DNA from: Candidatus Nanogingivalaceae bacterium
GTDB lineage: Bacteria > Patescibacteriota > Saccharimonadia > Saccharimonadales > Saccharimonadaceae
Assembly: GCA_015257795.3 (NCBI GenBank)
Contig: CP072208.2
Location: 630,001 to 662,000, forward strand
Direction of reading: 5' to 3'
DNA length: 32,000 nucleotides
Every line of letters starts with the position of its first letter. Within the stretch, counting starts at the first letter, position 1. The notes below the pieces were generated by a model that saw only the letters and a list, made by a program, of their open reading frames with translations, had not been told where the DNA came from and ran no database searches. Position numbers and translations under genes: made by a program. Below are positions 4,421-31,799 of the stretch, piece by piece.

Positions 4421-6697
4421 CTATTGTTTTAATTTCCACTGTTGAGAAAGAGTCTGGTTTCTTGAATACAATTGTAACTTAGTACCGGACACGCCTATCA
4501 TCCCCCCAGACACATCTATAGTCTTGTTGGAATCACAGGCGGATAAAATTTCATACAACCCGTTATCGCTCTTTAAGATTTTCCATTTTTGAGCACAAGT
4601 TCCGTTATAATCATAGAGTTGAAGTTTAGTACCGTTTGATATTCTACCACCAGACACATCAATTACTTTACCGTTATCACTACGGATGACATAAAGATTG
4701 TCTGAAGTTTTTTCGATAGTAAAATTCTGAGCAAGTGTTTTATTTTGGTTGTATATTTGTAAATTCGCACCATTAGTCATTCTACCACTAGCTACATCCA
4801 TCGCTAATGTAGTCATGGTTGAAACTACATGCTTACCTTCTACCTCATCGCTATTAGATATTTGTTCATCTAAAGCCTTAATAGTGTTAACATCCTCAAT
4901 CTTCCATCTTTGTGCATCGGTGTTATTAGAGCTATAACCTTGAAGATATGAGCCGCTAGTATTAATAGCGCCATTAACAACATCTATAACAAAACCTCCA
5001 GAACAAGCATTTTGAACCTTATAAGCGCCTCTTTCATCGGCATGAATTGACCAAAGTTGCTCGCAAGAATTTTGTCTATCATGATTGAAGCGTAGTTGCT
5101 TAGCATTTACATTCTCAGTTATTTCCAAAAAACTTCCACTAGATATACTTTTAATTTTATAGAACACTCCGTCATACTTTTTTATCTCAAATTGTTGAAT
5201 TGGGCTATTTGAGACAAAATCTACGATATGAGCGGAAGCTTCTTCATTCTTAATACCTATAACCTTGTTAGATACAAAATTCGAAATCTTAAACGTTCCA
5301 TTTAGGCCTTGAGATAAAGATTTAATATTGAACTCTTGAGATGGCGTATCATTCCTGCTATAAAGTTGAAGTTTAGTACCAGAAGAATTTACATTTCCAC
5401 CGACTATATCCAACGCTTTATTTCCATTACACTTAGAAAGAATTTCAATCTTTCCGTTAGGTTTTCTACTTAAAGCCCATTTTTGTGCACAAGTTCCATT
5501 ATAATCATAAAGTTGAACCGAAGCTCCATTAATAGTTCTTCCTCCAGCCACATCAAGAACTTTTCCTGATCCTAAGTTCCTAATAACGTAGTATCCGTCG
5601 TCAGTCTGTTCGAATGAAAATTGTTGCGCTTTAGAACTATTTGCAGCATAGATTTGAATACGAGCACCATTTGAGTTGATTGCGCCATTTTCAATATCTA
5701 AATTTAATGAAGAGTTAGCCGAAACTGCATAAGAATCTTTAGGCAAAGCCACATTAGATTTAACAATTTCAACCTTGTCATCAGTAGTTGAACCAAATAA
5801 CTGATTGTAGAACATGAAGAAATTACGATTTCCGTAAGCGCCACAATTTGCAGTTCCTGGGAAGTTTGCAAGTGCTGCATCATTTGGAACATATGGAGTG
5901 TAGATATACAAGCTTAGTGTTGCAACATTTTCAATATTAACTCGTTTTGTTCCACATGCTGGATTTGGCGAATATTGTATATTATTCCAACCAATTCTCA
6001 AAGAGTATCCGCCATCTTTATAGTGATCTTTATAATATTTTAATTGCCAAGCAGCAAGAGTCATCTGTTTATAAAAACCAGCTTTCGAATTTACACAAGC
6101 AGCAGTATAGTTTGGCCCAGAATCAGGACAACCATAACCCATTGCATATTTATATTGACCCTTTACCGGCCAATTATCATTTAAGACATTCTGTGATTCC
6201 TTTTTTAATAGGACTAAAAGAACCTTCGGGCTAATTCCATATTCTTGAGCAGCATTATAAATAATTTGCGCAGCTGATATCCCGCCACTAAACGCTCCAC
6301 CACCTTTTTCGAAAGAAGTTTCACCTGTATTTGGATTTTCGTGATAGTTGTTTATACAAACATACGGCGGTTGATGCCAATAACTCGAACGTTGAGCCGC
6401 CGCAAATTGCGCCGCGGTTCGTCCATCACCCCTACCAGACGGCCCACTACCCCAAGTATCACATTGTCCAACTTGACTATTTAAAAATGCCTGAATTTGT
6501 TGAACATTCATAGAGTCTTTATCATAAAAAACACTATCATCAATAATTCTTCCTGGATTAAAATCAGTTGCGCGTACTGCGCTTGAGATATTTCGAATTA
6601 TAGCTAAAGCACTAAAAACAATTAGTGCCACAACTGGAACCCCAATAAAAACTGCTTTTCTAAATTCTCTATTTCTCGATCGTAAAACTTTGAGCAT
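4421..6697 (-). CDS. Secreted or membrane-anchored protein: N-terminal signal anchor, ~300-aa Cys-containing domain (tentatively lysozyme/lytic-transglycosylase-like), three ricin-type beta-trefoil lectin modules
   Basis: N-terminal hydrophobic segment AVFIGVPVVALIVFSALAII. Repeated (QxW)-type subrepeats: AQQFSFE, AQKWALS, SQEFNIK, EQLWSIH, AQRWKIE, AQNFTIE, AQKWKIL, SQQWKLK. The N-domain motif ISPKVLLVLLKKESQ...AMGYGCPD recalls Glu-Ser catalytic motifs of muramidase-like folds; that assignment is uncertain. Confidence 0.8.
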   Translation of the reverse strand: MLKVLRSRNREFRKAVFIGVPVVALIVFSALAIIRNISSAVRATDFNPGRIIDDSVFYDKDSMNVQQIQAFLNSQVGQCDTWGSGPSGRGDGRTAAQFAAAQRSSYWHQPPYVCINNYHENPNTGETSFEKGGGAFSGGISAAQIIYNAAQEYGISPKVLLVLLKKESQNVLNDNWPVKGQYKYAMGYGCPDSGPNYTAACVNSKAGFYKQMTLAAWQLKYYKDHYKDGGYSLRIGWNNIQYSPNPACGTKRVNIENVATLSLYIYTPYVPNDAALANFPGTANCGAYGNRNFFMFYNQLFGSTTDDKVEIVKSNVALPKDSYAVSANSSLNLDIENGAINSNGARIQIYAANSSKAQQFSFEQTDDGYYVIRNLGSGKVLDVAGGRTINGASVQLYDYNGTCAQKWALSRKPNGKIEILSKCNGNKALDIVGGNVNSSGTKLQLYSRNDTPSQEFNIKSLSQGLNGTFKISNFVSNKVIGIKNEEASAHIVDFVSNSPIQQFEIKKYDGVFYKIKSISSGSFLEITENVNAKQLRFNHDRQNSCEQLWSIHADERGAYKVQNACSGGFVIDVVNGAINTSGSYLQGYSSNNTDAQRWKIEDVNTIKALDEQISNSDEVEGKHVVSTMTTLAMDVASGRMTNGANLQIYNQNKTLAQNFTIEKTSDNLYVIRSDNGKVIDVSGGRISNGTKLQLYDYNGTCAQKWKILKSDNGLYEILSACDSNKTIDVSGGMIGVSGTKLQLYSRNQTLSQQWKLKQ

Positions 6698-13672: not shown

Positions 13673-15895
13673 CTAATCAATTTTCGCAACATTGAGAAGC
13701 AGCGAGCTAGTCAAAACAGACAAAGAACTAAGGGCCATAGCAAGACCTGCTAGTTCTGGATTGAGGGTCAATCCCAGTCCTACAAAGACTCCAGCAGCAA
13801 TTGGAATCCCAAGGAGATTGTAGATAGAGGCCCAGAAGAGATTGAGTAAGATCCTGCGGAAGGTCTTTTGACTCATGTCAAAGGCGCGCACAACGCCAAG
13901 CAAATCATTTTGCGTGAGCACGATGCCACCGGACTCGATCGCAATATCCGTTCCAGATCCCATAGCGATCCCCACATCCGCGATCGAGAGAGCTGGAGCA
14001 TCATTGATCCCATCTCCAACAAAGGCGACCTTGCTATCTTCTTGCAGTTTTTGGATGGCGCTAGCTTTTTCTTGAGGAAGGACATCAGCAATGACGGTGT
14101 CAATTCCCACTTGCTTAGCAATAGCTTGGGCCACCCGTTCATTATCCCCCGTTAACATGACCGTTTTCAAGCCCCGTTCTTTGAGCTTTTTGATCGCTTC
14201 TTTTGAGCTGGCCTTCGGAGCATCTTGAATGGCAATCAAGCCAATCACTTGCCCATCCACAGACAAACTGATCACTGTTTTGGCCTGCTCTTGCAAGTCT
14301 ACCATCCGTTTTTCAAGCTCCGGATCCATCGCTGTCCCGTCATGAAGTTTGCCATTTCCCAAGGTCACCAACTGCTGGTCGATCTGACCTTGGACCCCTT
14401 TTCCTTCAATCGCTTGGAAGTTTTCCACAGGGGATAACACCAAACCTTTTTCTTCTGCTTGGGATAACACCGCTTGGGCTAGTGGATGTTCTGAAAAAGT
14501 TTCAAGACTAGCAGCCGGTGTCAAGACACGCGCTTCATCTCCTACAACATCGGTTACAAGTGGTTGGCCAATGGTAATGGTCCCTGTCTTATCAAACACC
14601 ACGGTTTGAATCTTTTGCACTTCTTGAAGAACTGTTCCATTTTTAATCAGAACCCCCATCTTGGCACTACGGCCGGTTCCGACCATCAGGGCTGTTGGGG
14701 TTGCTAAACCAAGGGCACAAGGACAGGCAATAATGAGGACAGAGACTGCATAGAGCATGGCCTCTTGAAGCGACGCGCCCAGAAGCACGGACCAAACCCA
14801 GAAAGTCGCAATGGCCAAAATCGTCACCACTGGAACAAAGATACCTGAAATCTTATCCGTCAAATCTTGAATAGGAGCACGACTGGATTGGGCCATTTTG
14901 ACAAAGTCCACAATTTGAGATAAGAGGGTCTCACTACCGACTTTTTCAGCCTTAAAGAGAATGGTCCCATTGCTGTTGATAGTGGAGCCGATCACTGCAT
15001 CACCAACTGATTTTTCCACAGGCAAGCTTTCACCTGTCACCATCGACTCATCAATGGTCGTACTTCCTTCTACAATCGTCCCATCAACCGCAATCTTTTC
15101 CCCAGGACGGACCCGAATCAAGTCACCAATTTGGATATCTTCTGCCGCCACCTCGACATAGTTCCCATCACGGAGAACTTGAGCCGTTTTTGCCTGCAAA
15201 TCCAACAATTTTTCCACAGCCTCGGAGGCATTGTTACGCATCCGTTCTTCAAAGATTTGCCCTAAGAGGATAAAGAAGATGATAAAACCCGCAGCCTCAA
15301 AGTATACTGGCTGACCAGTAAAAAGGGCAAATACACTATAGACATAGGCTACCAGGGTTCCAAGAGCTACCAAGGTATCCATATTGGAATGGTGCTTCTT
15401 AAATGAGGCCCAGGCACTCTTGATAAAAGGTACTCCTGCTACCAACATGATCGGCGTTGTCGCTAGAAAAGCCCCCCAGCGACTGACTGGATGGGAGACA
15501 AATCCTGCCCACATCCCAATCATCAAGATCAATAAAGGAAGGGTAAAGATACTAGTAATCCAAAAGCGACCCCGTAAATTTAAGACACGACGGCGTTTTT
15601 CCACAACCGTGTAGGAACCCTTTTGCATCTTCATTCCACATGAAAACTCGAAGTCCCCTGTTTCTGTCGGGGTAAAGGATATCACCTTATCCACACCGAC
15701 TTCCAAAGGCTCTAAAATCCCCTGATCTTCAAACAAAATTTCCTTGTAACAGCCGGAAGGATTGACCCGATGGAAGGTGATTTCAGCAGGGATCCCTTTT
15801 TGAAGTTGAAATTCCTTTGGACTATAGCCTTTTTCTGCTGTAATACGGATCTTTTGCACTCCGTTTTCCACAACTGCTTTTTGTTTTTCTACCAT
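13673..15895 (-). CDS. copA: Cu(I)-exporting P1B-type ATPase with an N-terminal cupredoxin-like metal-binding domain
   Basis: TGES, CPC ([13 protein letters not shown]), [27 protein letters not shown]. The N-terminal ~100 aa lack a CxxC HMA motif and instead carry C49...C86-G-M88-K-M90, as in the pneumococcal CopA metal-binding domain. Confidence 0.95.
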
Positions 15896-15905
15896 ACCTA
15901 CTCCT

Positions 15906-16277
15906 TTATTTCACAATCATGTGACCATGCATCATGTTCATTCCACATGAATACCCATATTCGCCCGCTTTTTCTGGCGTAATTTCAATGACATGTTTTT
16001 CACCTAAAGGCAAATCTTCATGAACACCAAAATCTGGAAAGATCACTTGATCCAGACATGAAGATGGATCCTTGCGATTAAAGATGATCCGGGCTGGAAC
16101 ATTCTTTTTCAGGACAATGGTTTCAGGCGAATAGCCCCCCATGACTTCGACTTCAATTTCTTGATAACCTGATTTCTGACGAGCGTGGCCGCTTACCTTT
16201 TCATGCTCTGCAAAGAACCACCAAGCAATAAAAGCAACCACAAGTAAACAAACAATACTAATCAACAATCCAAACAT
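15906..16277 (-). CDS. cupA: Membrane-anchored cupredoxin-like Cu(I) chaperone CupA
   Basis: 123 aa, with an N-terminal TM helix. Cys74, Cys111, Met113 and Met115 ([11 protein letters not shown]) sit at the positions I recall for Streptococcus pneumoniae CupA. Paralogous to the CopA N-domain and located immediately upstream of copA. Confidence 0.85.
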
Positions 16278-16321: not shown

Positions 16322-17548
16322 TTAATCTCGTTTAAGCATCACAGTAAAAGCTTCACTCGGAATTTCAACATTTCCAAATTTCTTCATTCGCTTTTTACCA
16401 CGTTTTTGTTTAGCCAGCAATTTCTTCTTTCGAGAAACATCACCACCATAAAGATAGCCCGTCACATCTTTTCGATAAGCTGAAATGTTTTCGCGCGCAA
16501 TGAATTTTCCACCGATTGCCGCTTGAATTGCCACCTGGAAGTTTTGCCGCGGAATCACTTCTTTCAATTTTGCAGTAATCTCGCGACCCATTCGCACACT
16601 CTCCGAACGGTGACACATCACTGAAAGCGCATCAACCATTTCGCCCGCAACATAAAAATCTACTCGCACTAAATCTTCTGCTAAATAATCCCAAAGCTCA
16701 TAATTAAATGAACCGTAACCCGACGTAACACTCTTAAGCTGATCGTAAAAATCGGTCAAAAGATTCGCAAGCGGTGCTTCAAAAGAAATCAAAACACGTT
16801 CATCAATATAACTCAAGTTTTTCTGTAAGCCACGTTTCGAAACAATTAATTGAATTACCGCACCAACATAATCTTTTGGCACCACAATTTCGCCCTTAAT
16901 CCACGGCTCACGAATTTCAGAAATTCTTGTTTGGTCTGGTAAATCAGCTGCACTCTTAATATCTAATTCTTCACCTGTTGTTAAAATTACATGATAGTCA
17001 GTTGAAGGGTTAGTAATCACTAGATCTAGATTATATTCTCGTTCCAAACGCTCACGAACAATATCCATATGAAGAAGTCCAAGAAAACCAATTCGTATAC
17101 CAAAGCCCAAAACTGGCGAATTTTCTGGCTCAAACTGCAATGCAGAATCGCTCAAGCTTAGCTTTTCGACTGCATCTTTCAAATCTTGATAATCTTCGTT
17201 CGAAACTGGGAAAAATCCCGCATAAACAAACGGCTGAACATTCTGGTATCCCGGTAAAGGTTCATTAGCGGGGTTTTTCGAAAGTGTTACAGTATCACCA
17301 ACCTTCGCCTCGCGCGTGGTTTTCAAGTTTGTCACGATGTAGCCAATTTCTCCAGCCCCCATTTTATCGTATGGCGTCATTTTTGGCTGAAGCTTACCAA
17401 TTTCGAGTGCTAAGCCTTTCGAATCGGTTGCCATCATTTTAATTTCATCACCCTTTTTCAATTCACCCGAAAAAATCCGAACATACAAAATTACACCGCG
17501 ATAATCATCATAATAACTGTCAAAAATCAAAGCTTTTAGTGGTTTCAT
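16322..17548 (-). CDS. lepA: Elongation factor 4 (LepA), domains II to C-terminus, as a separate ORF
   Basis: PLKALIFDSYYDDYRGVILYVRI... aligns with LepA directly after the G domain. The LepA-specific C-terminal domain is present. Confidence 0.9.
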   Translation of the reverse strand: MKPLKALIFDSYYDDYRGVILYVRIFSGELKKGDEIKMMATDSKGLALEIGKLQPKMTPYDKMGAGEIGYIVTNLKTTREAKVGDTVTLSKNPANEPLPGYQNVQPFVYAGFFPVSNEDYQDLKDAVEKLSLSDSALQFEPENSPVLGFGIRIGFLGLLHMDIVRERLEREYNLDLVITNPSTDYHVILTTGEELDIKSAADLPDQTRISEIREPWIKGEIVVPKDYVGAVIQLIVSKRGLQKNLSYIDERVLISFEAPLANLLTDFYDQLKSVTSGYGSFNYELWDYLAEDLVRVDFYVAGEMVDALSVMCHRSESVRMGREITAKLKEVIPRQNFQVAIQAAIGGKFIARENISAYRKDVTGYLYGGDVSRKKKLLAKQKRGKKRMKKFGNVEIPSEAFTVMLKRD

Positions 17549-18099
17549 TAAATCTCCTTTGGTGATGGTATTCTTTCAATCACCGCATTCAAAACTTCTT
17601 CAACACCCATTCCTGTTTTGGCTGAAATATGTAAAATCTCGCTTTCATCACACCCTAAAAGATTAATAACTTCTTTCGAAACTCGTGGAATATCTGCAGC
17701 CGGTAGGTCAATTTTATTTAGCACAGGAATGATTTTCAAATCAGCCGCTATCGCAAGATAAACATTTGCGAGTGTTTGAGCTTGAATTCCCTGTGAAGCA
17801 TCTACAACCAAAATCGCACCCTCACAAGCTTGAAGTGAGCGCGAAACTTCATAAGAAAAATCCACGTGTCCTGGGGTATCAATTAAGTTTAGCTCAACAC
17901 CTTTCCAATTCATTGTTACTGGAGCAAGCTTAATAGTGATTCCTTTTTCCCGCTCCAAATCCATCGAATCCAAAAGCTGCGATTTCATGTCACGTTTTTG
18001 AACTGTACCTGTAATCTCCATCATTCGATCAGCTAAAGTTGATTTACCGTGATCAATGTGCGCGATAATACAAAAATTTCTAATATTTTTTAAATCCAT
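17548..18099 (-). CDS. lepA: Elongation factor 4 (LepA) GTPase domain, as a separate ORF
   Basis: G1 [10 protein letters not shown]3 DTPGH, G4 NKID. Ends ...ERIPSPKEI-stop, and the stop overlaps the next ATG (TAATG). Confidence 0.9.
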
Positions 18100-22610: not shown

Positions 22611-22639
22611 TTGCGTTTTTAAATCGATTATGTTAAAAT
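22611..22639 (+). promoter_or_regulatory. Promoter TTGCGT-17-(TGt)TAAAAT, 7 nt upstream of the ATG at 22647
   Basis: TTGCGTttttaaatcgattaTGtTAAAATttatacaATG. This promoter is divergent from the tilS promoter within a 54-bp spacer. Confidence 0.5.
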
Positions 22640-22646
22640 TTATACA

Positions 22647-23921
22647 ATGAAAAATGGTGGGAACAGTTCGAAAATTAAAGAAGTAAAATTCGAAAAAACG
22701 ATAAAATTTACAGCTGAAAGCATTATTGAAAATGCCTTAAATTTGCACGCAACCGATGTTCATATTGAGCCTCGCGAAAATTCAGTTTTGGTGCGTTTTC
22801 GAATTGGTGGTGTCCTAAAAAATATGAGCGAAATCCCAAAAAAAGATTTTCCAAAAATAACTAAATATTTCAAGTCCTTAGCTGGTCTTAATTTTAGCGA
22901 GAAAACTTTTCCACAATCATCGACAATTCATTACGGAGAAGCTCGAATTCGAATTTCGACAACACCAGTTTTTTTGGGTGAAAAAATCACTCTCCGTTTA
23001 ATGCGTGCGCGAAAATACGTTCGAAAACTTAACGAAATTGGGCTTTGGGGTGAAAATCTTCGTGCCGTAGAGCAAATTCTTCGCCAACCACGAGGTATTG
23101 TTTTTACTGTTGGCGATGGAAGCAATACAACAAACTTCTCAATTTTAAACGAATTAAATTCCTCTGAAAAGAATATTGTAACAATCGAAAAAACAATCGA
23201 AAAAACAATTACCGGAATCAACCAAACCGAAATTAACCCTAAAATTGGCTTAGGTTATTTCGAAATGACCAAATCCGCCCTAAGCCAGAATCCAGATATT
23301 ATATATATCGATAACCTAAACGATAGAAAAACAGCCGAACTTATTTTCGATTCTGCAATGCGCGGAAAATTCATCATCGCTAGCGTTCCTGTTCGTAAAA
23401 CTAGCGAGGTTATTCCGTTTTTAAATCACCTCGGAATTGAACCGTTCCTAATTATTGCGAATGTTCTTGGGATTATTTCACAAACACTAATGCGAACCAT
23501 TTCTAAAAAATCTACCACTAATGTAAAAATCTCAAAAGAAGAGTCATCATTAATCTTGCAAGAATTTAATATTTCTCCACTTCGAATTCACCAACTCGAA
23601 AAAGATTTCAAGAATGAGAAATACCCAAATAATAGTCTCGCAACTTCGTCAAATTCAATTCTTAATCTCCCATCAATTAAGAAAAACATCTCGCCCGAGA
23701 TTGCTTTTTCTGGAACAACTGGAATTTTCGAAGTTCTAAGTTTACTCGAAGGTAAAATTTCAAAAGAAATTAAAGAGTTAATCCCCGTAAATCCAAGTTC
23801 TGTTGAAATTGAAGAGATTCTTTCTATAAATAATTTTGTCAATTTACGAACTGATGGCCTTCTAAAAGTTCTTCAAAAAGAAACCGTTCTATCTGAATTG
23901 ATGCGTAGAACTGGATTTTAG
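22647..23921 (+). CDS. GspE/PilB/PilT-superfamily protein with degenerate catalytic motifs (probable pseudo-ATPase)
   Basis: The family N-domain is conserved (ATDVHIEPRENSVLVRFRIGGVL...ARIRISTTPVFLGEKITLRLM). The four catalytic boxes are not: Walker A reads TVGDGSNTT (no Lys), Asp box TIEKTIE, Walker B NPDIIYIDNLND (no Glu), His box GKFIIASVPVR (no His). Confidence 0.8.
   Translation: MKNGGNSSKIKEVKFEKTIKFTAESIIENALNLHATDVHIEPRENSVLVRFRIGGVLKNMSEIPKKDFPKITKYFKSLAGLNFSEKTFPQSSTIHYGEARIRISTTPVFLGEKITLRLMRARKYVRKLNEIGLWGENLRAVEQILRQPRGIVFTVGDGSNTTNFSILNELNSSEKNIVTIEKTIEKTITGINQTEINPKIGLGYFEMTKSALSQNPDIIYIDNLNDRKTAELIFDSAMRGKFIIASVPVRKTSEVIPFLNHLGIEPFLIIANVLGIISQTLMRTISKKSTTNVKISKEESSLILQEFNISPLRIHQLEKDFKNEKYPNNSLATSSNSILNLPSIKKNISPEIAFSGTTGIFEVLSLLEGKISKEIKELIPVNPSSVEIEEILSINNFVNLRTDGLLKVLQKETVLSELMRRTGF
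23181..23209 (+). repeat. 12-bp tandem duplication (ACAATCGAAAAA x2 plus 5 nt) encoding TIEKTIEKTI
   Basis: Read directly from the sequence. It lies at the position of the Asp box in the GspE-like gene. Confidence 0.9.
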
Positions 23922-23948: not shown

Positions 23949-24506
23949 ATGTTAATCCTAGCTTCGAATTTATCTAATACTCCAGTGATGAGCCTACAAA
24001 CCGGTTCCCAGCTTGCAAGAACAGGTAGAGCAATCATCGACCCTTCGAATCTTCAAATTTTAGCCTACGAGCTAAAAGCGAATACTTTTTTAAATCAAGA
24101 AATGTTGGTTCGCATTGCTGATATCCGTGAGCTCTCAAGAGTTGGTTTTATTGTTGATTCTGGCGAAGATTTTATTCTGCCAAATGATGTATTTAAAATT
24201 AAAGGAATTCTTGATCTAAATTTTAATCTATTAGATTTAAGAGTTGAAGATGAGAAGAAACATAAAATTGGTAAGATTATTGATTACACAATTAGCCTTT
24301 CGAATTTTTCTGTTCAACAATTAATCGTTAAACGTCCATTCATAAAATCTTTTAGCGATCCAACACTTACAATCCACCGCTCGCAAATTATTGAAATTAA
24401 CGATAATAAAATCGTAATTCAGAGCGAAGAAGAATCTGTTCCGCAAAAAAGCGCCGAAAAAACTGAGAATTTTGTTCCAAATTACGTTAATCCATTTCGA
24501 GATTAA
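23949..24506 (+). CDS. Tandem PRC-barrel-like protein
   Basis: Two segments match the PRC-barrel pattern: TPVMSLQTGSQLARTGRAIIDPSNLQILAYEL and DLRVEDEKKHKIGKIIDYTISLSNFSVQQLIV. Assignment is by motif recall only. Confidence 0.55.
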   Translation: MLILASNLSNTPVMSLQTGSQLARTGRAIIDPSNLQILAYELKANTFLNQEMLVRIADIRELSRVGFIVDSGEDFILPNDVFKIKGILDLNFNLLDLRVEDEKKHKIGKIIDYTISLSNFSVQQLIVKRPFIKSFSDPTLTIHRSQIIEINDNKIVIQSEEESVPQKSAEKTENFVPNYVNPFRD

Positions 24507-25246
24507 AATTCATCTTTAGAAAGTGCCCTCTTAATTTCGTCATACGAAAACCCTTGTCGTGCTAAATATGCGACAAGTTTTTTTTCGTCAGCGTATTTTT
24601 TGGCTTTTTTTGCAATTATTTTTTGAATTTCTTCCGAATCATTACGCTTTGAACTTGCTAAAATTTGTTCGATAATTTCGTCTGAAACACCTTTCGAAAA
24701 TAATTCAGATTTTAATTTTTTAATTGAACTTCCTTTTCTTTGATTTCGATTTTCAATCCAAAATTTTGCAAATTTAAAATCATCAACATAGCCTTTCTCA
24801 ATCAATCTTTGCAAAGCTTGTTCTGCTGAAACTTTTGAAACTCCTTTTTTCTCATAAAATTCACCCGTTTTTTTATTTCGAAGCTTTCGATTTAGCGTTT
24901 TTTTCCACAGATAATCACTAATTTCCTTTTCAGAATGTGGCCGCATCAAACAATAATTAAGCCCAAGAGCATATAATTTTCCAAATTCACTCTGTTGTTC
25001 GAGATTTAAAATTTCATCTTCTGAAAATTTTGCACCAATTTTAACATTTAGTTGAGTTAATTGAAAAATATCCAAAGAAAAACGATATTTTCCATTTACA
25101 AAAATATTAGCACGATTTGGATTTTTAACTGCTTGTTTTATATCTGTAATCGTGAAATGGCCATCTTTAAAAATATCTTCTTTTCGAAAACTTTTTTTTG
25201 CAACTTTTTCTTTAAAATCATTTTGATCGAAAATATCTAAAGCCAT
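24503..25246 (-). CDS. recX: RecA regulator RecX (long, Firmicute-like form)
   Basis: Immediately downstream of recA, with repeated three-helix motifs: ALNYCLMRPHSEKEISDYLWKK, RLIEKGYVDDFKFAKFWIENR, YLARQGFSYDEIKRAL. Confidence 0.8.
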   Translation of the reverse strand: MALDIFDQNDFKEKVAKKSFRKEDIFKDGHFTITDIKQAVKNPNRANIFVNGKYRFSLDIFQLTQLNVKIGAKFSEDEILNLEQQSEFGKLYALGLNYCLMRPHSEKEISDYLWKKTLNRKLRNKKTGEFYEKKGVSKVSAEQALQRLIEKGYVDDFKFAKFWIENRNQRKGSSIKKLKSELFSKGVSDEIIEQILASSKRNDSEEIQKIIAKKAKKYADEKKLVAYLARQGFSYDEIKRALSKDEF

Positions 25247-25287: not shown

Positions 25288-26352
25288 TTATTTTTCTTCT
25301 TTTTCCTCATTATCAGAAGATTCTTCAGCAATTTCCTCTCCACGAATTTTTGCACGAACTTTTTTCTCAATTTCAGCCATAACTTCTGGATTTTCAAGCA
25401 AGTATCGTTTAGCGTTTTCACGACCTTGACCAATATTTTGGTCGTTATATTTGTAAAACGCACCTGATTTTCCAAGAATTTCATGTTCAACTGCTAGATC
25501 TAGAATATCACCCGTTTTCGAAATACCTTCATTATACATAATGTCAAATTCAGCAATTCTAAACGGCGCTGCAATCTTATTTTTAACGATTTTAACCTTT
25601 GTACGGTTACCAATTACATCGTCGCCACTTTTAATTTGTGCAGTTCGACGGATATCGGCACGCACTGACGCATAAAATTTAAGCGCATTACCACCAGTTG
25701 TAGTTTCAGGATTGCCAAACATCACACCAATTTTCATTCGAATTTGGTTAATGAAAATCACAGTCGCTTTTGATTTATTAATAATTCCGGTAAGTTTTCG
25801 AAGCGCTTGCGACATTAATCGAGCCTGAAGACCCATATGCGCATCACCCATGTCGCCATCGATTTCAGCTTGTGGAACTAACGCTGCAACAGAGTCAACA
25901 ACAATCAAATCAACAGCATTTGAACGCACTAGAGTTTCAGTAATTTCAAGAGCCTGCTCGCCATTGTCGGGCTGCGCAACAAGCAAATTCTCAGTATCAA
26001 CGCCGAGTTTCTTTGCGTAAGCTGGGTCAAGTGCATGTTCCGCGTCAATGAAAGCTGCAGTTCCACCTTGCTTTTGAATTTCAGCAATCGCATGAAGTGT
26101 TAGAGTAGTTTTTCCTGAACTTTCTGGTCCATAAATTTCAATGATTCGTCCTTTTGGATAACCACCACCAAGCGCAATATCTAAACTTAAGCATCCCGAA
26201 GGAAGAAGCTCAACATCAACCTTATGATTTTCACCAAGTTTCATAATTGAACCGTCACCAAATTGTTTCGAAATTTGAGCAATTGCTAAATCTAATGCTT
26301 GTTTTTTGCCGCTTTCGGCCATTCCCATATCTGTTTTCTTCGCCTTAGCCAT
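25288..26352 (-). CDS. recA: Recombinase RecA
   Basis: Walker [27 protein letters not shown], and L2-loop region [32 protein letters not shown]. Confidence 0.97.
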
Positions 26353-26450: not shown

Positions 26451-26840
26451 ATGAAGAGAAAATCTGGTTTTACACTTATCGAGATTTGTGTTGTAATTAT
26501 TTTTTTAATTGCGGCGGGTATAATTCTTACTATCCAGCGTTTCGAACTTTTATCAGTTCAACGCGATCAAACTCGTAAGCTAGCAATTAATGAAATTTAT
26601 TATAATCTCGAGGAAGTCTATTACAAGAAAAACGGTTTCTATCCTGAAAAACTTGATGAAAATGCCGTCAAAGGAATTGACCCAAACCTATTAACAGACC
26701 CCTTCGGAATCCTAATTAACGAAGAAAAGAGTGACTACCGTTATGAGCCAACAAGTTGCGAAAACGGAAAATGCAAAAAATTCTCTCTTCGTACAAAATT
26801 AGAAAAAGAAAGCGATTTCGTAAGGCGTTCGAAAAACTAA
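26451..26840 (+). CDS. Type IV prepilin / competence-type pseudopilin
   Basis: Class III signal MKRKSG|FTLIEICVVIIFLIAAGIIL (Gly-1, Phe+1, Glu+5). C-terminal Cys pair CENGKC. 129 aa. Confidence 0.8.
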   Translation: MKRKSGFTLIEICVVIIFLIAAGIILTIQRFELLSVQRDQTRKLAINEIYYNLEEVYYKKNGFYPEKLDENAVKGIDPNLLTDPFGILINEEKSDYRYEPTSCENGKCKKFSLRTKLEKESDFVRRSKN

Positions 26841-26879: not shown

Positions 26880-27632
26880 TTATTTTACCGATATTTTTGC
26901 ACCTTCTTCAAAAAGTTTATCTGAAAGCATTTGATTTTCGCGTGCTGTCTCCACGATATCGCTCAAAAATTCAGCTTTCTTGTCCGGGTTTGGTGCAAAC
27001 GGAAAAGTATAGGTTGACTCATCACCAATAGTGCTTAATCGCACTGTTCCATAATCAAACAAATGCTGTAAAATCCCTTCACGAGAATACGAGATATCTT
27101 CAATCGCTTCCAGGTTAATAACCTGCTTTCTCTGATTCATAATTGTATTCGAAATCCACTGAATTGCACGTTCATTTGTTATGATTAATCTGTTCGCTCG
27201 ATAAACAACATAATTTATATAAGTTATTAAAATTAAAAGCACCGTTATTGAACCGAAGATTAATGAAAGTTGCGGCTTAAAGTTGGCTGGAATTGGAAAC
27301 GGATTTGGTAAAAAGCAAATAATAATCCAGGCGCTAATCAAGAAAACAGCAATAATTGAGCTAAAAATAATGTTAAGCAAATAGCCTAGTGCATGCCGAC
27401 GCATCGAAAGCACAACATATTCATCTTCATCAACTGTAATATCGGGATACATTCTTACCGATTGATCATGACGTGCTTTAATTACGCGTGGATCGCCAGC
27501 AGGAACTTCAACCTGCATAACTGGCTGAACTCGAATTGGCGCGCCCAGACTATTTTCGAAACTTAAATTTTCATTCTGATTCTGGGCAATTTTTTCCTCA
27601 AATTTCTGGGCTAGGCTTTGCTTATCGTTCAT
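26880..27632 (-). CDS. Membrane protein with a bacterial PH (bPH_2/YdbT-like) domain
   Basis: Two adjacent TM helices, followed by NERAIQW...[31 protein letters not shown]. Overlaps the end of ruvB by 11 nt. Confidence 0.6.
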
Positions 27633-28638
27633 CTTTGAATTCCTTTCCTAAATGCTCAAACGCTTTTTTCGTAATTATTCTTCCTCGTGGTGTTCTTTGC
27701 AAAAAACCAATCTGCATTAAATATGGTTCATAAAAATCTTCAATTGTCGCAGCTTCATCACCCGTCAATGCAGCCATTGTATTTAAGCCAACTGGCCGAG
27801 TGCCATAATTTTCAATAACCGATTTTAATAGATTTCTATCTGCTGCATCCAACCCTAATTCGTCAATTTCAAGCATTTCTAAGGCCTCTTTAACCGTTTT
27901 CGAGTCAATAATTCCATCACCTTTTACATCTGCATAGTCTCGAACGCGCTTCAAGATGCGGTTCGCAATTCGTGGTGTTAATCTTGCTCGAGTTGAGAGA
28001 ATATCTGAAGCTTCTTTTTCAATATCACTACCTAATAAATTACTTGAGCGTAAGATAATTTTTGAAATTTCCTTAGGTTTATAAAATTCTAACCTATAGA
28101 TATGTCCGAACCGGTCTCGGAGTGGAGCCGCCAGACTTCCAGTTCGAGTTGTGGCGCCAATAACTGTAAAATGCGGCAAATCCAGCCGAACCGAGCGTGC
28201 GGCCGGCCCTTTACCAATCACAATATCAAGTTTAAAATCTTCCATTGCAGAATAGAGAATCTCTTCAACAGCACGCGGCATGCGATGAATTTCATCAATA
28301 AAAAGAATATCGCCATCTTGTAAATTCGTCACAATCGAAGCTAAATCTCCCGCTTTTTCGATTGCCGGACCAGATGTAATTCGAATATTCGCGCCCATTT
28401 CACGCGCAATAACATTTGCCATTGTAGTTTTTCCTAGTCCTGGCGGACCATAAAGTAAGACGTGATCAATACTTTCACCACGTTTTTTTGCCGCGTCAAT
28501 CGCAAGCTTTAAATTCTTTTTCAATCGCTCCTGACCGATATATTCATCAAAATTCGTTGGACGCAAAGAAATCTCCACCTGCTGCTCTTGCGGTTCGTCA
28601 TCGTGTAAGTTTGCATCAATAATTCTTTCAATAGCCAT
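27622..28638 (-). CDS. ruvB: Holliday junction branch-migration ATPase RuvB
   Basis: [12 protein letters not shown], Walker [10 protein letters not shown], Walker B LFIDEIHR, sensor GATTR. Confidence 0.95.
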
Positions 28639-28645
28639 TGCTTAT

Positions 28646-28654
28646 ATTATACCA
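28646..28654 (-). promoter_or_regulatory. Extended -10 box TGgTATAAT, 7 nt upstream of the ruvB ATG
   Basis: Reverse strand reads cgTGGTATAATataagcaATG. Confidence 0.5.
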
Positions 28655-28658
28655 CGAC

Positions 28659-28687
28659 TTGACAAAAATAGAAAAATTTGTTATAAT
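28659..28687 (+). promoter_or_regulatory. Perfect consensus sigma70 promoter TTGACA-17-TATAAT for the orphan gene
   Basis: TTGACA at 28659-28664, an exact 17-nt spacer, TATAAT at 28682-28687. It lies back-to-back with the ruvB -10 box. Confidence 0.65.
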
Positions 28688-28719
28688 TCTATTCAGTATT
28701 CCTTTTTGGAATAAGAATT
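28685..28719 (+). promoter_or_regulatory. Imperfect palindrome around the predicted transcription start site (operator or 5' UTR hairpin)
   Basis: AATTCT attcag TATTCC ttttt GGAATA AGAATT. Inner arms are at 28697-28702 / 28708-28713, outer arms at 28685-28690 / 28714-28719. Confidence 0.4.
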
Positions 28720-28741
28720 TTATACTTAGGAGGCTCTTAAT

Positions 28742-29161
28742 ATGGGCAACTTACATTTAATCAAAGGTGACGTTGACATTTTCAAGAATGCTGTAAAAGC
28801 AGCACGTGGTGATGAAGAAATGGCAAAAGAAAACTTAACTAAAGATATTTTCAAATATGCCAGGGCTATCTCTAGACACGTGTTTAATAAAAAAACACAT
28901 AGAAGCTACCTCTATCACATAGATAATCTGGATGTCACTAACGGTTTTGGGGATGAGCCTGTTGCGGTTCTTGTAGAAACCAAAGACTGTTTTGCTATAA
29001 ATAAAAATGGTGACATTTATAGCAAAACTAGCAGTAATAAATACGGTTTCAAGAAGGTAAATGAAGCAGATCTTCTCAGCTTAGCTGGAGAACAAATCGG
29101 ATTCTTATATAAAGCGCTTCATAATCTCCTACGAGAAGTTGTAACCTTCCGTAAAAATTAA
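28742..29161 (+). CDS. Hypothetical cytoplasmic protein (139 aa); no family recognised
   Basis: Strong SD AGGAGG 8 nt upstream, a consensus promoter, and its own terminator. No TM segment or signal peptide. I recognise no motif. Confidence 0.65.
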   Translation: MGNLHLIKGDVDIFKNAVKAARGDEEMAKENLTKDIFKYARAISRHVFNKKTHRSYLYHIDNLDVTNGFGDEPVAVLVETKDCFAINKNGDIYSKTSSNKYGFKKVNEADLLSLAGEQIGFLYKALHNLLREVVTFRKN

Positions 29162-29164
29162 AAT

Positions 29165-29190
29165 AGTCGCACGAAATGTGCGGCTTTTTT
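29165..29190 (+). terminator. Rho-independent terminator after the orphan gene (also faces ruvA)
   Basis: 8-bp stem 29165-29172 / 29178-29185 (AGTCGCAC ... GTGCGGCT, including one G-U pair), loop GAAAT, then a T-run. Confidence 0.75.
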
Positions 29191-29199
29191 CTTTTTAAA

Positions 29200-29775
29200 T
29201 TAAATTCCAGCTTTCAATGCCAAAGTAATGCGTTCTTCTGTTGGTAAATCACGCGGGATTTGCTCTAATGCTTTTGTTGCATCGTTCAAGTTAAATCCAA
29301 GCGCAATAAGCGCCTCTAAAGCCTCATCTGAAGCCAAGCTAATATTATCGCCAACTCCATCGGGTTTCGAAATCGCCATTCCAACTTTATCTTTTAAATC
29401 TAAAATTACGCGCTCGGCCGATTTTTTACCAACGCCAGCAGCTTTTTGAATAAATTTCGCATCTTCACAGGCAATTGCGTTTCGAACTTCTTCGGTTTCA
29501 CCCAAGCTCATAATGGCAATTCCAGCTCTTGGCCCAACACCTTGAACAGTAATCAACAATTCAAAAAGTTTTTTAGCCGCCAAACTTGAAAAGCCAAATA
29601 ATTCCTGGCTTCTATCAGTAATATTATGATAAGTATAAAATTTAATCTGCTCGTTTAAAACCGCCCGTTCGAATTCTCCTACGGGAACAATAACTTCATA
29701 GCCAACACCAGAAACATCAACAATCACGCTCCCTGCAAATTTTTCAGCAATTTTTCCAGAAATATGTGCAATCAT
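29200..29775 (-). CDS. ruvA: Holliday junction DNA helicase subunit RuvA
   Basis: MIAHISGKI...GVGYEV, HhH motifs LITVQGVGPRAGIAIMS and KAAGVGKKSAERVILDLK, plus C-terminal domain III. Confidence 0.9.
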   Translation of the reverse strand: MIAHISGKIAEKFAGSVIVDVSGVGYEVIVPVGEFERAVLNEQIKFYTYHNITDRSQELFGFSSLAAKKLFELLITVQGVGPRAGIAIMSLGETEEVRNAIACEDAKFIQKAAGVGKKSAERVILDLKDKVGMAISKPDGVGDNISLASDEALEALIALGFNLNDATKALEQIPRDLPTEERITLALKAGI

Positions 29776-29781
29776 TGTTTA

Positions 29782-29790
29782 ATTTTACCA
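29782..29790 (-). promoter_or_regulatory. Extended -10 box TGgTAAAAT, 6 nt upstream of the ruvA ATG, in the 30-bp ruvC-ruvA spacer
   Basis: Reverse strand reads ttATGGTAAAATtaaacaATG. Confidence 0.4.
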
Positions 29791-29805
29791 TAATTATTTT
29801 AGTTT

Positions 29806-30291
29806 TTAAATACGCGTCATATAAAAATGCGTAATTGCGGCAGCAAGCGCATCGGCTGCGTCATCCGGCTTTGGCACTTCTACTAGATTCAAAGTTGAAC
29901 GCACCATTTCTTGCATTTGTTTTTTGTTTGCACCGCCATACCCAGTTAAAGTTTGCTTAATTTGATTTGGCGTATATTCAGCGATTGGAATTTTCGATTG
30001 TTGAGCTACTAAAATCGCCACACCTCGAGCCTGTGCGACCGAAATTGCCGTCGTTACGTTTTTCGAAAAGAATAGTTTCTCAATTGAAACCTCATCTGGC
30101 TTAGTTTCTTCAATAATCTCTTTTAAGCCGTTATAGATCTCCTCTAGTCGAATTTCAATTGGCGTGTGTGCAGGAGTTGAAATAACCCCTCCTGTAATCA
30201 TTTTTAACGGTTTTCCAATCTGGCAATCTACAACGCCAAACCCTAAAATTCCTGTTCCTGGGTCGATACCTAAAATTCGCCGTTTTTTCAT
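29806..30291 (-). CDS. ruvC: Holliday junction resolvase RuvC
   Basis: ILGIDPGTGILGFGV (catalytic Asp), EVSIEKLFF (Glu), DAADALAAAITH (Asp/His). Confidence 0.9.
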   Translation of the reverse strand: MKKRRILGIDPGTGILGFGVVDCQIGKPLKMITGGVISTPAHTPIEIRLEEIYNGLKEIIEETKPDEVSIEKLFFSKNVTTAISVAQARGVAILVAQQSKIPIAEYTPNQIKQTLTGYGGANKKQMQEMVRSTLNLVEVPKPDDAADALAAAITHFYMTRI

Positions 30292-31799
30292 TTTTTACCT
30301 TTCATTAATTTTGCAAAAATATCTCTTCTAAACTCGAAAAATAAAATTGCTAAAAATATCAAAATAATTACAGCAATAGCCCACCAACCCGTAAATTCAG
30401 CCTGTTTCGATTCTTTTTCATCTTTTTCGACTTCATTATTTGCGCCGTTGTTTTTAACTATTTTTCTACAACGATTTGTTTCAGTGTTGCGCTCGTAGCC
30501 ATCTTTGCACGGCGTTATTTCTTTTTTCGCATCTGAACTATTTTTTCGACATCGATTTGTGATAGGATTACGCGTATAGCCCGGCGCACAAACCGCCAGC
30601 TCTTTCGAAGAACTTGCCAGTGTTGCAATTTTGCGGCAACGATTTGTTTCTGGACTTCGAACATAACCATCGCGACACTCTGTTGTCGCTACTTTTTCGA
30701 CTGGCATTTTATTACAACGATTCGTTTGCGGATTCAAAAAATACCCATCACTGCACTTTTTCTCAGTTTTTTCATCATTTTCAATCTTTTCGGTTTTTTC
30801 TTTTTCGAGTTTTTCTTCTTTTATTTTATTACATCTTCCAGTTTCTTCATTTAAAAAATATCCGTCTTCGCAAACTTTTATTTTTTCGCACTGCCCTTGC
30901 GAATTTAAATTGAATCCATTTTCGCAAGGCTGAAAAATATTTTCACTTTTTTTTGTAATTTTAAAACTTTGACTCCATTCTTTTCCATCAAAGATCCAGC
31001 TCAAATCCTTTTTCGAATTTTTTAAATCAACAGTTTGAATTTCTTGATTGTTCGAATCTAATAACGAAATTTTATTTAAGCCCATCTTTAAAAGCTTGAA
31101 ATTTAGATCCGTATTTAAATCAAGCGAGAAAAAACTATTTGGTAAAATTTCTTCATCCGTAAAAACTTTTTTATACGGCTTTTTTAAACTTCCAAGATGA
31201 ATTTCAACTGCGCAATTTTTAAGATTTATTTTTTTATTTGTATTATTTTTAAATTCAATAAATTGCTCGCTTGAATTTGCTAAAACCTCGTTTAATTGTA
31301 TATTTTCGCAAAAATCAGGCTCTTTTTCCGCCAGGCCGCCAGTTTTAAAAACTACACCCTCTTTCGAAATCTCAAAATCACCGCCCAAGTTCAAATCTCG
31401 AACTAAAACATCTTCTTCTGTAAATTCTGGCGCATTTTTATTTTTGCAAGTCATTTTTAGACCACATAAAAAGTCTACATCCTGCCCGTCAATCCTTAAT
31501 TTTATTTGGCTTTTCAACAATTCCGGATTTAAAATAAGTTCCCCATCACCATTTTCGCCAAATGAAATTTGTGATTTTTTAAGAAAAACTCCGTTTGAAA
31601 TTTCGCCAATTATTTTATTTTTCTGAATTATCTCAATTTTCGAAAAACTCAAATTATCACCCAAATTTGTGATCTCAATCATTGTATTTGAAACTTTCGA
31701 AATTAAAATTTTCTGATCAGAAATAGCCGAAGCTTGATTAAAATTTCCCAAAAAGAATAAAGCTAAAATTAAAAATAAAAAATATCTAAAAAACCTCAT
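30288..31799 (-). CDS. Secreted, C-terminally membrane-anchored protein: lamin-tail-domain (LTD)-like region(s) plus six Cys-pair repeats
   Basis: Signal peptide MRFFRYFLFLILALFFLGNFNQASA. LTD-like IQLNEVLANSSEQFIEFKNNTNKKINLKNC. Six copies of C-x-[DPN]-G-[YF]-x-[LR]-[NS]-x-x-[TQ]-[NG]-[RQ]-C-x-K. C-terminal TM segment WWAIAVIILIFLAILFF plus a basic tail. ATGA overlap with ruvC. Confidence 0.75.
   Translation of the reverse strand: MRFFRYFLFLILALFFLGNFNQASAISDQKILISKVSNTMIEITNLGDNLSFSKIEIIQKNKIIGEISNGVFLKKSQISFGENGDGELILNPELLKSQIKLRIDGQDVDFLCGLKMTCKNKNAPEFTEEDVLVRDLNLGGDFEISKEGVVFKTGGLAEKEPDFCENIQLNEVLANSSEQFIEFKNNTNKKINLKNCAVEIHLGSLKKPYKKVFTDEEILPNSFFSLDLNTDLNFKLLKMGLNKISLLDSNNQEIQTVDLKNSKKDLSWIFDGKEWSQSFKITKKSENIFQPCENGFNLNSQGQCEKIKVCEDGYFLNEETGRCNKIKEEKLEKEKTEKIENDEKTEKKCSDGYFLNPQTNRCNKMPVEKVATTECRDGYVRSPETNRCRKIATLASSSKELAVCAPGYTRNPITNRCRKNSSDAKKEITPCKDGYERNTETNRCRKIVKNNGANNEVEKDEKESKQAEFTGWWAIAVIILIFLAILFFEFRRDIFAKLMKGKK
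30468..30926 (-). repeat. Six in-frame Cys-pair repeats (aa 292-444 of the LTD protein)
   Basis: CENGFNLNSQGQC, CEDGYFLNEETGRC, CSDGYFLNPQTNRC, CRDGYVRSPETNRC, CAPGYTRNPITNRC, CKDGYERNTETNRC. A recurring nucleotide core CAACGATTTGT is visible on the plus strand. Confidence 0.8.

Follow-up and report, generated by a model that had tools for sequence, protein, structure and literature searches.

What becomes of a pilus motor protein once the residues that make it a motor are gone? This question is raised by a gene of a Candidatus Nanogingivalaceae bacterium (Saccharibacteria clade G6), an oral lineage, and it lies in the 32,000-nucleotide stretch that we analysed (contig CP072208.2, positions 630,001 to 662,000, forward strand; here called the window). 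The gene is an uninterrupted open reading frame (ORF) at 22647..23921 on the plus strand, and its product has 424 amino acids. An earlier description, made from the letters alone (the sequence-only reading), had presented it as an intact gene for a GspE/PilB-family protein with a conserved fold, in which all four catalytic boxes are degenerate, and had proposed that it is retained for a noncatalytic role. The frame is indeed intact, and all of the peptides that were quoted are present. Our overall best explanation, with a probability of about 0.6, is that the protein is a PilB-fold pseudo-enzyme that originated in a second type IV pilus (T4P) locus and has a noncatalytic role.

Fold and motifs of the protein

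The Pfam profile T2SSE (PF00437) matched residues 18-420 of the protein, corresponding to profile positions 8-370 of 370 (E=6.3e-54; 183.5 bits with a cutoff of 24.9), and this was the sole Pfam domain. The best match in a sequence search of the PDB was the ATPase core of Thermus thermophilus PilF (5oiu; E=1.4e-56, 30% identity). GspE/EpsE came next, and then Geobacter or Myxococcus PilB. A structure was predicted with AlphaFold2 (AF2) from a 95-sequence alignment. The mean predicted local distance difference test score (pLDDT) was 91, the predicted TM-score (pTM) was 0.84, and disorder was limited to residues 1-11. When Foldseek was used to compare this model with the PDB, PilF was again the top match (5oiu_B; E=1e-40, TMq 0.82, TMt 0.90, root mean square deviation 2.9 Å). 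Geobacter PilB and Vibrio GspE ranked after it, and PilT, PilU, and DotB were at a TM-score of ~0.6. The fold consists of the second N-terminal domain (N2D) and the C-terminal domain (CTD), as both AF2 and Foldseek indicate. Its homology and its fold place the protein in the PilB/GspE clade of the T2SSE/PilT-like superfamily, and the conserved fold claimed for it is borne out. PilT was a weak match in the PDB sequence search (~1e-9). Because its similarity is so much weaker (E=1e-9, TM ~0.63), we conclude that the G6 protein descended from PilB rather than from PilT. It falls short of every NCBIfam equivalog cutoff by a factor of 2 to 5 (GspE, 230.6 versus 630; PilB, 191.6 versus 676; TfpB, 197.3 versus 850; ComGA, 145.4 versus 300). 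Furthermore, Pfam did not find an MshEN/GSPII domain (PF05157) in the protein, which starts about 17 residues ahead of N2D. We annotate the coding sequence as a PilB-derived pseudo-ATPase with N2D and CTD only, using the ORF, the Pfam and PDB matches, the AF2 model, and the ratio of nonsynonymous to synonymous substitution rates (dN/dS; see below).

Motif positions were set by the alignment to the hidden Markov model (HMM) and by pairwise alignment to PilF and to canonical PilBs of the candidate phyla radiation (CPR; Patescibacteria). The T2SSE profile covers residues 18-420 end to end, so there is no room for a second set of motifs. Over residues 18-422, the HMM and PDB alignments are collinear, and we could thus rule out that intact motifs lie in another part of the protein. 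The motifs are where the sequence-only reading had put them, with no alternative Walker A or Walker B. Its coordinates were also correct, apart from a 3-nt slip at the start of Walker A (23109 is the Val, and the true start is 23106).

The N-terminal part of the core had been described as well preserved. This is true of its signature peptides, ATDVHIEP (residues 35-42), VRFRIGGVL (residues 49-57), and RISTTPVFLGEKITLRLM (residues 102-119), which include the N2D signature A-[ST]-D-[IV]-H-I-E-P and R50/R52. It is also true of the second arginine finger, R102 in "RIS" (22950..22958, plus strand), which is invariant in all alignments and is equivalent to PilB_Gm R286 if judged by motif spacing. 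However, the first arginine finger is gone (22899..22928, plus strand). Here the alignments pair EKRLPQDGRF with EKTFPQSSTI (RLPQDGR to TFPQSST), and positions 87, 91, and 93 are variable in the family.

In Walker A, the canonical GPTGSGK[ST] has been replaced by a 3-residue deletion and VGDGSN. The remnant, TVGDGSNTT (residues 154-162; 23106..23132, plus strand), aligns with Ser in place of the Lys and Asn in place of the Ser/Thr. In the AF2 model, the former P-loop is reduced to a 3-residue turn between a strand (150-155) and a helix (159-170). The consensus of 23 nonredundant family members is xGxG[KRSN]N, with T154, G156, G158, N160, T162, N163, and F164 invariant. Loss of the Walker Lys, as claimed, is correct for the window protein, but it is not typical of the family. 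Position 159 is K in 16 of the 23 nonredundant orthologues, R in three, S in two, and something else in two, so that 19/23 keep K or R. It is S or N in the window's own clade and N in the clade at 76% identity.

Walker B has changed from the canonical DPDIIMVGEIRD to NPDIIYIDNLND (23289..23324, plus strand), with Asp replacing the Gly and Asn replacing the catalytic Glu. Position 222 is D in 21/23 members, and position 223 is N in 11, D in seven, and E in four, with S also seen. The His box has changed from TGHLVLSTLHTN to RGKFIIASVPVR. Its remnant, GKFIIASVPVR (23364..23396, plus strand), has K241 and P248 where the two His were, and both replacements are invariant in the family. Therefore, the alignments confirm that the catalytic Glu and both His are lost, and Walker A, Walker B, and the His box are all degenerate. 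The Asp box is only half so. Its canonical TIEDPVEY has become TIEKTIEK (23181..23204, plus strand), with the Asp and Pro replaced and both Glu retained. E185 is invariant among the nonredundant members, and E181 and K186 are each present in 22/23. Judging from the alignment, one of E181 and E185 should correspond to the Mg-coordinating Glu of canonical PilB (PilB_Gm E357).

Other sites have also changed. The pore-loop Glu is E in at least 90% of canonical sequences, K in 72% of G6 sequences, and Lys228 in the window protein (23328..23330, plus strand; mapped as the PilB_Gm E400 equivalent from the GEIRDxE spacing). All four Cys of the zinc site are missing, with S286 and A289 in place of two of them and no CxxC at the second site. 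The protein has no CxxC pair and no domain other than T2SSE, in agreement with the sequence-only reading, which had noted the absence of a tetra-Cys motif and of an N-terminal GSPII domain. This former zinc finger region (23496..23714, plus strand) is the most variable part of the alignment (mean entropy, 1.84). Between the two former CxxC sites, a Saccharimonadia-specific insertion has been kept ("RIHQLEK...LATSSNSIL"; "LH.LE...L.TS..IL").

The features universal to PilT-like ATPases are Walker A and Walker B, the catalytic Glu, two arginine fingers, an Mg-coordinating Glu in the Asp box, and a His in the His box that touches the gamma-phosphate (McCallum et al., PMC5424180). The same paper describes the functional role of PilB_Gm E400 and of the arginine fingers. 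Of these features, only the Asp-box glutamates and one arginine finger (R102) survive in the window protein; D217 is also invariant. Because the P-loop, the catalytic Glu, the His box, and one arginine finger have been lost, the protein is predicted to be unable to act as a canonical ATP-driven motor.

Conservation and origin

A search for homologues found about 77 protein clusters at 99% to 48% identity, nearly all of 403-436 amino acids. Below 48% there is a gap, and then canonical PilBs follow at 33% identity or less. An exhaustive profile search of 1.84 billion representatives revealed no other close family. The G6 representatives had scores of 710 and 487 bits, and no single-domain outsider exceeded 289 bits. 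In the species genomes of the Genome Taxonomy Database (GTDB), we found 31 loci with the gene, from about 31 species and with identities as low as 49%. Those with names are all Candidatus Nanogingivalaceae, Nanogingivalis, or Saccharibacteria. N. gingivitcus CMJM (HOT-870) is one of them, and JCVI_32_bin.33, another, is 99% identical to the window.

We obtained a full-length coding sequence from 30 of the 31 loci. We then estimated dN/dS by the Nei-Gojobori method from 217 pairs with 0.05 < dS < 1.5, pooled over clades. The median for the pseudo-ATPase gene was 0.091 (interquartile range, 0.062-0.13). This is below the medians for tilS (0.155) and recX (0.119), similar to those of the noncore neighbours (PRC-like, 0.088; pilin, 0.062; bPH protein, 0.061), and above those of ftsH (0.042), recA (0.037), and ruvB (0.032). 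The gene therefore represents a Nanogingivalaceae family that is under strong purifying selection and is not a pseudogene, and the earlier view that it is retained rather than decaying was right. The exception among the 31 loci was L032, where the gene is frameshifted. We rejected this frameshift as a sign of decay because tilS, recX, and ruvB are frameshifted on the same contig. The assembly concerned (CAKAEX010000001.1, 666 kb) is a near-complete G6 assembly with frameshifts in several housekeeping genes, probably from uncorrected long-read error, and it is unsuitable for pseudogene calls.

The conserved positions are informative about where the constraint lies. In an alignment of 36 G6 sequences (alignment A4), 81 of the 424 positions are at least 97% conserved. 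Nine of these are G6-specific replacements of residues found in canonical PilB, such as N163, K186, K241, S246, and P248. The segments of the former active site have a mean entropy of 0.70-0.95 among the 23 nonredundant members (P-loop remnant, 0.70; Walker B, 0.84; His box, 0.93), which makes them more conserved than the protein as a whole (1.27). The new invariant residues in these segments are N160, N163, K241, S246, and P248, and K186 is nearly invariant. The classic catalytic positions, 159 and 223, drift within the family. Because conserved segments with new invariants are combined with drift at these two positions, we propose that the pocket and the intersubunit interface have been remodelled and are constrained for something other than catalysis.

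Where did such a protein come from? In the window, murJ, ftsH, and tilS (all minus strand) are followed by the pseudo-ATPase and PRC-like genes (plus), recX and recA (minus), a pilin gene (plus), bPH and ruvB (minus), orf139 (plus), and ruvA, ruvC, and an LTD (lamin-tail-domain) gene (minus). This order is kept in most G6 loci. Apart from the pseudo-ATPase gene, the window has no pilB, pilT, pilC, or pilM, and there was no pilC or pilM/N/O either in the window or within ±10 kb of the gene in the 31 G6 loci. Several neighbours are landmarks of an ancestral locus. These are recX (24503-25246, minus strand; Pfam RecX and synteny) and recA (25288-26352, minus strand; RecA sequence and synteny), and, as its right border, the genes for the bPH protein, RuvB, RuvA, and RuvC (26880..30291, minus strand, with orf139 on the plus strand between them; Pfam). 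The pilin gene (26451..26840, plus strand) encodes a 129-residue type IV pilin with weak N_methyl and GspG matches and a KSG|FTLIE prepilin motif.

A motif census revealed two kinds of Saccharimonadia PilB, canonical and altered. The canonical set has the motifs EHRAPQDGRF, GPTGSGKSTT, TVEDPVEY, DPNIIMVGEIRD, and TGHLVFSTLHTN. In the altered set (P0121-P0132, P0134, and P0101), the first arginine finger has become HxPQYGQ, the Walker B Gly has been replaced, mostly by Ser, and some members lack the Lys, the Glu, or a His. A full operon surrounds four canonical PilBs (L086, L087, L088, and L090), so that an operon architecture like that of Nanosynbacter lyticus TM7x is confirmed between recA and bPH-ruvB in four Saccharimonadia loci. 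It is complete in L087, where the order is LTD (minus), PRC-like (plus), recX, NUDIX, and recA (minus), then PilB, PilC, pilin, three ORFs, PilM, PilN-like, PilO-like, and orf100, and finally bPH, ruvB, ruvA, and ruvC (minus). Seven altered PilBs (L080, L081/82, L083, L084, L085, L089, and L091) have just PilB and one pilin between recA and bPH/ruvB. This remaining pilin is orthologous to the one that comes first after PilC in the full operon, and the window pilin is its orthologue in turn. The bPH-ruvB-ruvA-ruvC genes border both the full operon (L087 and L090) and the reduced loci (L080-L091). On the Saccharimonadales contig L036, recX-recA is followed by a 606-residue PilB in which MshEN and the tetra-Cys site are present, Walker A is GSGIS (K to I), Walker B is SSIND, and the His box is half lost.

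All landmarks of the block PRC-like/recX/recA/PilB/pilin/bPH/ruvB are in the window, with PRC-like-recX-recA sitting between PilB and the pilin. The PRC-like, pilin, and bPH proteins of the window are homologous to their counterparts in full and reduced loci (E 3e-9 to 1e-26; pilins, 3e-9 to 2e-16). In N. gingivitcus CMJM (L022), the pilin gene is directly 3' of the pseudo-ATPase gene and is followed by bPH-ruvB, and in L023 the pseudo-ATPase gene is alone between rnpA and uvrA. The gene thus survives in three or more genomic contexts. The kept insertion supports descent from a Saccharimonadia PilB, and so do two derived states that G6 and the altered set have in common (Y for R at position 74, and GLWG for GFWG).

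A neighbor-joining (NJ) tree, in which no PilB1 was included, recovered G6 as monophyletic (100%). G6 grouped with the altered set at 45% bootstrap (25% without the motif columns) and with the canonical set at 0%. The G6 branch is very long (mean distance of 1.5-1.6, versus 0.78 between the canonical and altered sets). Because of this long branch and the weak NJ support, we rested orthology on synteny. Synteny strongly indicates that the pseudo-ATPase descends from the PilB of a second T4P operon linked to recA and bPH-ruvB, of the type called "locus two" in TM7x. According to the TM7x preprint, locus two comprises PilC2, PilB2, PilM2/N2/O2, RecAX, and the essential pilin PilJ, and CMJM (G6) keeps locus one, with "no homology to locus two" (Grossman and colleagues, 10.1101/2024.11.25.624915). 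This is the sole comparative study that we found, and it reports no trace of a second locus in G6. The gene described here is that trace, a diverged locus-two remnant that the published comparison missed. In such a history, PilC, the minor pilins, and PilM/N/O would have been deleted in several lineages, leaving PilB and the first pilin. The PilB of reduced lineages would then erode its catalytic residues, with G6 as the end state.

Possible roles

The pseudo-ATPase probably now does a nonenzymatic job, to judge from its residues and their conservation. G6 retains a T4P system (10.1101/2024.11.25.624915; Baker 2021, PMC8386444), and the mechanism that we prefer, tentatively and at less than even odds, is that the protein is a noncatalytic partner or regulator that modulates this remaining T4P-1 machine. 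After the loss of PilC2/M2/N2/O2, ATP turnover by this PilB would become dispensable, which would account for the repeated erosion of K, E, and H in reduced lineages and for their near-total loss in G6. Freed of its own platform, the protein would persist as a noncatalytic subunit of PilT size. It would bind, compete with, or coassemble with PilB1/PilT, or dock to PilC1/PilM1, and the effect would be that of a brake or an adaptor on pilus assembly or retraction. The remodelled nucleotide pocket and intersubunit surface would serve as the conserved site of interaction or ligand binding.

Several points weigh against our reading. The grouping in the tree is weakly supported and may be affected by long-branch attraction. 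By raw similarity, the canonical PilBs come out closest, but they evolve slowly and score best for that reason, so we set this measure aside as uninformative about origin. The presence of canonical PilB1 and PilT in G6 is taken from the two papers cited above, and our own data cover the ±10-kb flanks of the gene. The N1/MshEN domain and the pore Glu (now Lys), which are usually implicated in docking to the platform, are gone. The solitary gene in L023, between rnpA and uvrA, has no operon partner that points to pili. Finally, TM7x pilB2 mutants are viable, motile (twitching), and competent, and there is no known second ancestral role.

The constraint on the pocket might instead mean that a nucleotide or some other small molecule is still bound there but not hydrolysed, and that the protein signals occupancy to its partners. 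No part of the protein is better conserved than the segments of the former active site, most nonredundant members keep K or R at the Walker Lys position, and the Asp-box glutamates, one arginine finger, and D217 can be counted as invariant (if E181, at 22/23, is included). New invariant polar residues (N160, N163, and K241, with K186 at 22/23) line the same region. However, the P-loop is three residues shorter and forms a tight turn, the Mg-binding Ser/Thr is an invariant Asn, and the Lys is replaced by S or N in the window clade and in the clade at 76% identity, in a family whose median dN/dS of 0.091 is pooled from 217 pairs. We therefore regard a ligand sensor as unlikely, though still worth considering. 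It is far less plausible that the protein remains an ATP-driven motor that uses noncanonical residues. Most orthologues do keep GxG[KR]N, both Asp-box Glu, and one arginine finger, and some have E or D at the catalytic Glu position, but a P-loop with a deletion, Lys and Glu positions that vary, and the absence of both His cannot be reconciled with the established PilT-like mechanism, and the window protein has Ser and Asn at the two key positions.

The genomic setting invites another explanation, exaptation away from pili to DNA uptake, recombination, or repair. The locus lies among recX-recA and bPH-ruvB-ruvA-ruvC across the Saccharimonadia, the L023 gene adjoins uvrA, and the TM7x authors see a hint of DNA uptake in the essential pilin beside recA (10.1101/2024.11.25.624915). 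Even so, neighbourhood is weak evidence in a small, gene-dense genome, TM7x pilB2 and T4P-2 mutants have wild-type competence, and no DNA-binding motif was detected in the pseudo-ATPase with Pfam or NCBIfam. We consider a DNA role improbable. The loss of catalytic motifs and the deletion of the rest of the operon could also be what is left by decay, with an undisrupted pseudogene, or one kept for neighbouring regulatory sequence. That explanation is effectively refuted by a dN/dS value that is below those of tilS and recX and about that of the other noncore neighbours, by a frame of about 420 codons that is intact in about 31 species down to 49% identity, by a confident fold prediction, and by retention in at least three genomic contexts.

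If the pseudo-enzyme reading with a pilus-linked role holds, this may be the first documented pseudo-enzyme of the PilT-like superfamily. A hexameric motor subunit would have lost first its machine and later its chemistry, and the remaining T4P would have coopted it as a noncatalytic regulator (a brake, clutch, or adaptor); as a whole, we treat this scenario as possible but doubtful. The sister lineages would show a stepwise path from motor to pseudo-enzyme, from the full operon through an eroding PilB with one pilin to the truncated form. The same series, from full to reduced to motif-less, offers a route to the PilB surfaces that matter apart from catalysis. T4P are essential to the epibiotic lifestyle of Saccharibacteria, and a protein that regulates the remaining motor would be a new type of control element in T4P biology. 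More generally, a component can outlast the deletion of its machine and be retained for a different use. In practical terms, the annotation "PilB/GspE family ATPase" in CPR genomes can hide inactive proteins and inflate counts of pili and secretion systems.

Other features of the window and known relatives

The sequence-only reading had given the gene its own promoter. The gene needs one because the divergent tilS is 54 bp away, but a consensus scan for promoters and terminators found nothing above shuffle expectation near it. By eye, there is a candidate promoter, TTGCGT-17 nt-TGtTAAAAT (22611..22639, plus strand), which is below the level of the consensus scan, and there is no Shine-Dalgarno sequence. 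This candidate ends 7 nt before the ATG, so, if it is used, the mRNA could be leaderless. On the other side, a gap of 27 nt without a terminator separates the pseudo-ATPase gene from the PRC-like gene, and a terminator-like hairpin is found at 24553-24577.

The PRC-like gene (23949..24506, plus strand) encodes a PRC-barrel-like protein of 185 residues with a weak match to Pfam PRC (E=0.004, below the cutoff). Every Saccharimonadia locus that we examined has a homologue of it as the ORF preceding recX (31-38% identity, E 1e-20 to 1e-26). In most of the loci, which comprise the window, other G6 loci, and environmental lineages, a PRC-like gene for about 170-190 residues lies immediately ahead of recX and convergent with it (L080, 7459-8037; L083, 7009-7524; L087, 2813-3328; L089, 5519-6040). 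The exceptions are L088, where a peptidase gene intervenes, and L022, where the copy is beyond recA on the same strand. PRC-like and recX look like a conserved gene pair. Only in G6 does it adjoin the pseudo-ATPase gene, with L022 and L023 as exceptions. We therefore rejected the PRC-like gene as an operon-based clue to function, since it pairs with recX and the adjacency reflects a G6 rearrangement.

LTD proteins of about 475-500 residues are encoded in the window at 30288-31799 (minus strand) and also in L086 (3015-4442), L087 (1269-2690), and L088 (4632-6089). They flank the recombination and pilus block on opposite sides in G6 and in lineages with the full operon, which suggests a large-scale rearrangement of an otherwise conserved neighbourhood. 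The L087 and window LTD proteins had no BLASTP match at E<=1e-3 and have only a Pfam match in common, which is weak in the window protein (E=1e-4).

Three regions farther away also drew our attention. The lepA (EF4) gene is split (16322-18099, minus strand) into a 183-residue GTPase-domain ORF (17548-18099) and a 408-residue ORF (16322-17548), which are in different frames and overlap in TAATG. Because most G6 loci that reach this region have the same split, and because the parts are about 630 nt apart in L026, the split appears to be real and conserved rather than the product of a sequencing error. At 13673-16277 (minus strand), a copper-type P-type ATPase (740 residues, with an N-terminal cupredoxin domain) is encoded together with a separate 123-residue cupredoxin-like protein. 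This is the sole GC-rich stretch of the window (GC 0.45-0.48 versus 0.32-0.38), and it may be a horizontally acquired metal resistance island. At 4421-6697 (minus strand), a gene for a 758-residue protein with six ricin-B/beta-trefoil lectin repeats adjoins glycosyltransferase and ABC-2 exporter genes. Its product is a candidate surface adhesin with which the epibiont could bind carbohydrates.

The pseudo-ATPase can be compared with several known systems. It is homologous to PilB, PilF, and GspE (5oiu, 5it5, 5tsh, and 4ksr) over the whole N2D and CTD core, with TM-scores of 0.82-0.90. Those proteins have the P-loop, catalytic Glu, His box, first arginine finger, zinc site, N1/MshEN domain, and pore Glu that it lacks, and the G6 gene does not lie beside pilC/M/N/O. 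It is like TM7x PilB2 in having the recX-recA landmark on one side and a single PilJ-type pilin beside it, an equivalence that rests on gene order and not on TM7x sequences. However, PilB2 is reported to have conserved Walker A and Walker B boxes and to be needed for thin pili (10.1101/2024.11.25.624915). In comparison, the G6 protein is truncated, has none of the residues of Walker A, Walker B, and the His box, and no longer has PilC/M/N/O as partners.

Another comparison is with the altered recA-linked PilBs. Like the G6 protein, they come from a locus with PilB and one pilin, they lack the first arginine finger and the Walker B Gly, and they have Y74 and GLWG. In some members, the Walker Lys has likewise been replaced (by I in P0121 and by N in P0101), or the catalytic Glu is missing (P0123, P0124, and P0101). 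Unlike the G6 protein, they have about 600 residues and keep MshEN, the tetra-Cys site, and a P-loop of full length; the His box, too, is mostly kept. The literature that we searched held no description of motif-eroded recA-linked PilBs, nor of the pseudo-ATPase or any degenerate PilB paralogue, which agrees with the sequence-only reading, in which no characterised paralogue of this kind was known. PilT and PilU have the same N2D and CTD architecture at about 350-420 residues, with no N1 domain and no zinc site. However, they are active ATPases with all motifs intact, and their similarity to the G6 protein is at the low level given above for PilT. A similar concept is found in FlaH of the archaellum and TadZ/CpaE of the Tad pilus, which are nonhydrolysing or atypical accessory subunits of filament machines, with an ATPase fold and a structural or regulatory part beside an active motor. 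They belong to different superfamilies (RecA/KaiC-like and ParA/MinD-like), and most of them still bind nucleotide. To our knowledge, no accessory subunit of this type is a PilB derivative.

Two further groups came up in the profile search. Proteins P0241-P0254 (about 980-1050 residues) each score as two PilB cores and rank above all single PilBs. We rejected them as closer relatives because these are summed domain scores of tandem cores. P0241, P0244, and P0248 were read and have two complete PilB/GspE cores with near-canonical motifs (one Walker A of P0248 has GSGT instead of GSGK), and the other eleven are assumed to be alike. The second group consists of short PilB-like representatives of about 440-470 residues (P0275, P0297, P0298, P0267, P0322, and P0355), which are partly eroded. 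In these, the Walker Lys has become I or T, GE has become NS, EN, or SE, and the His box has changes. The G6 protein differs from all six in that its P-loop deletion occurs together with the loss of the Gly-Glu pair of Walker B and of both His. Nevertheless, their motifs suggest that the evolution of pseudo-ATPases may be recurrent, or wider, in the PilB family.

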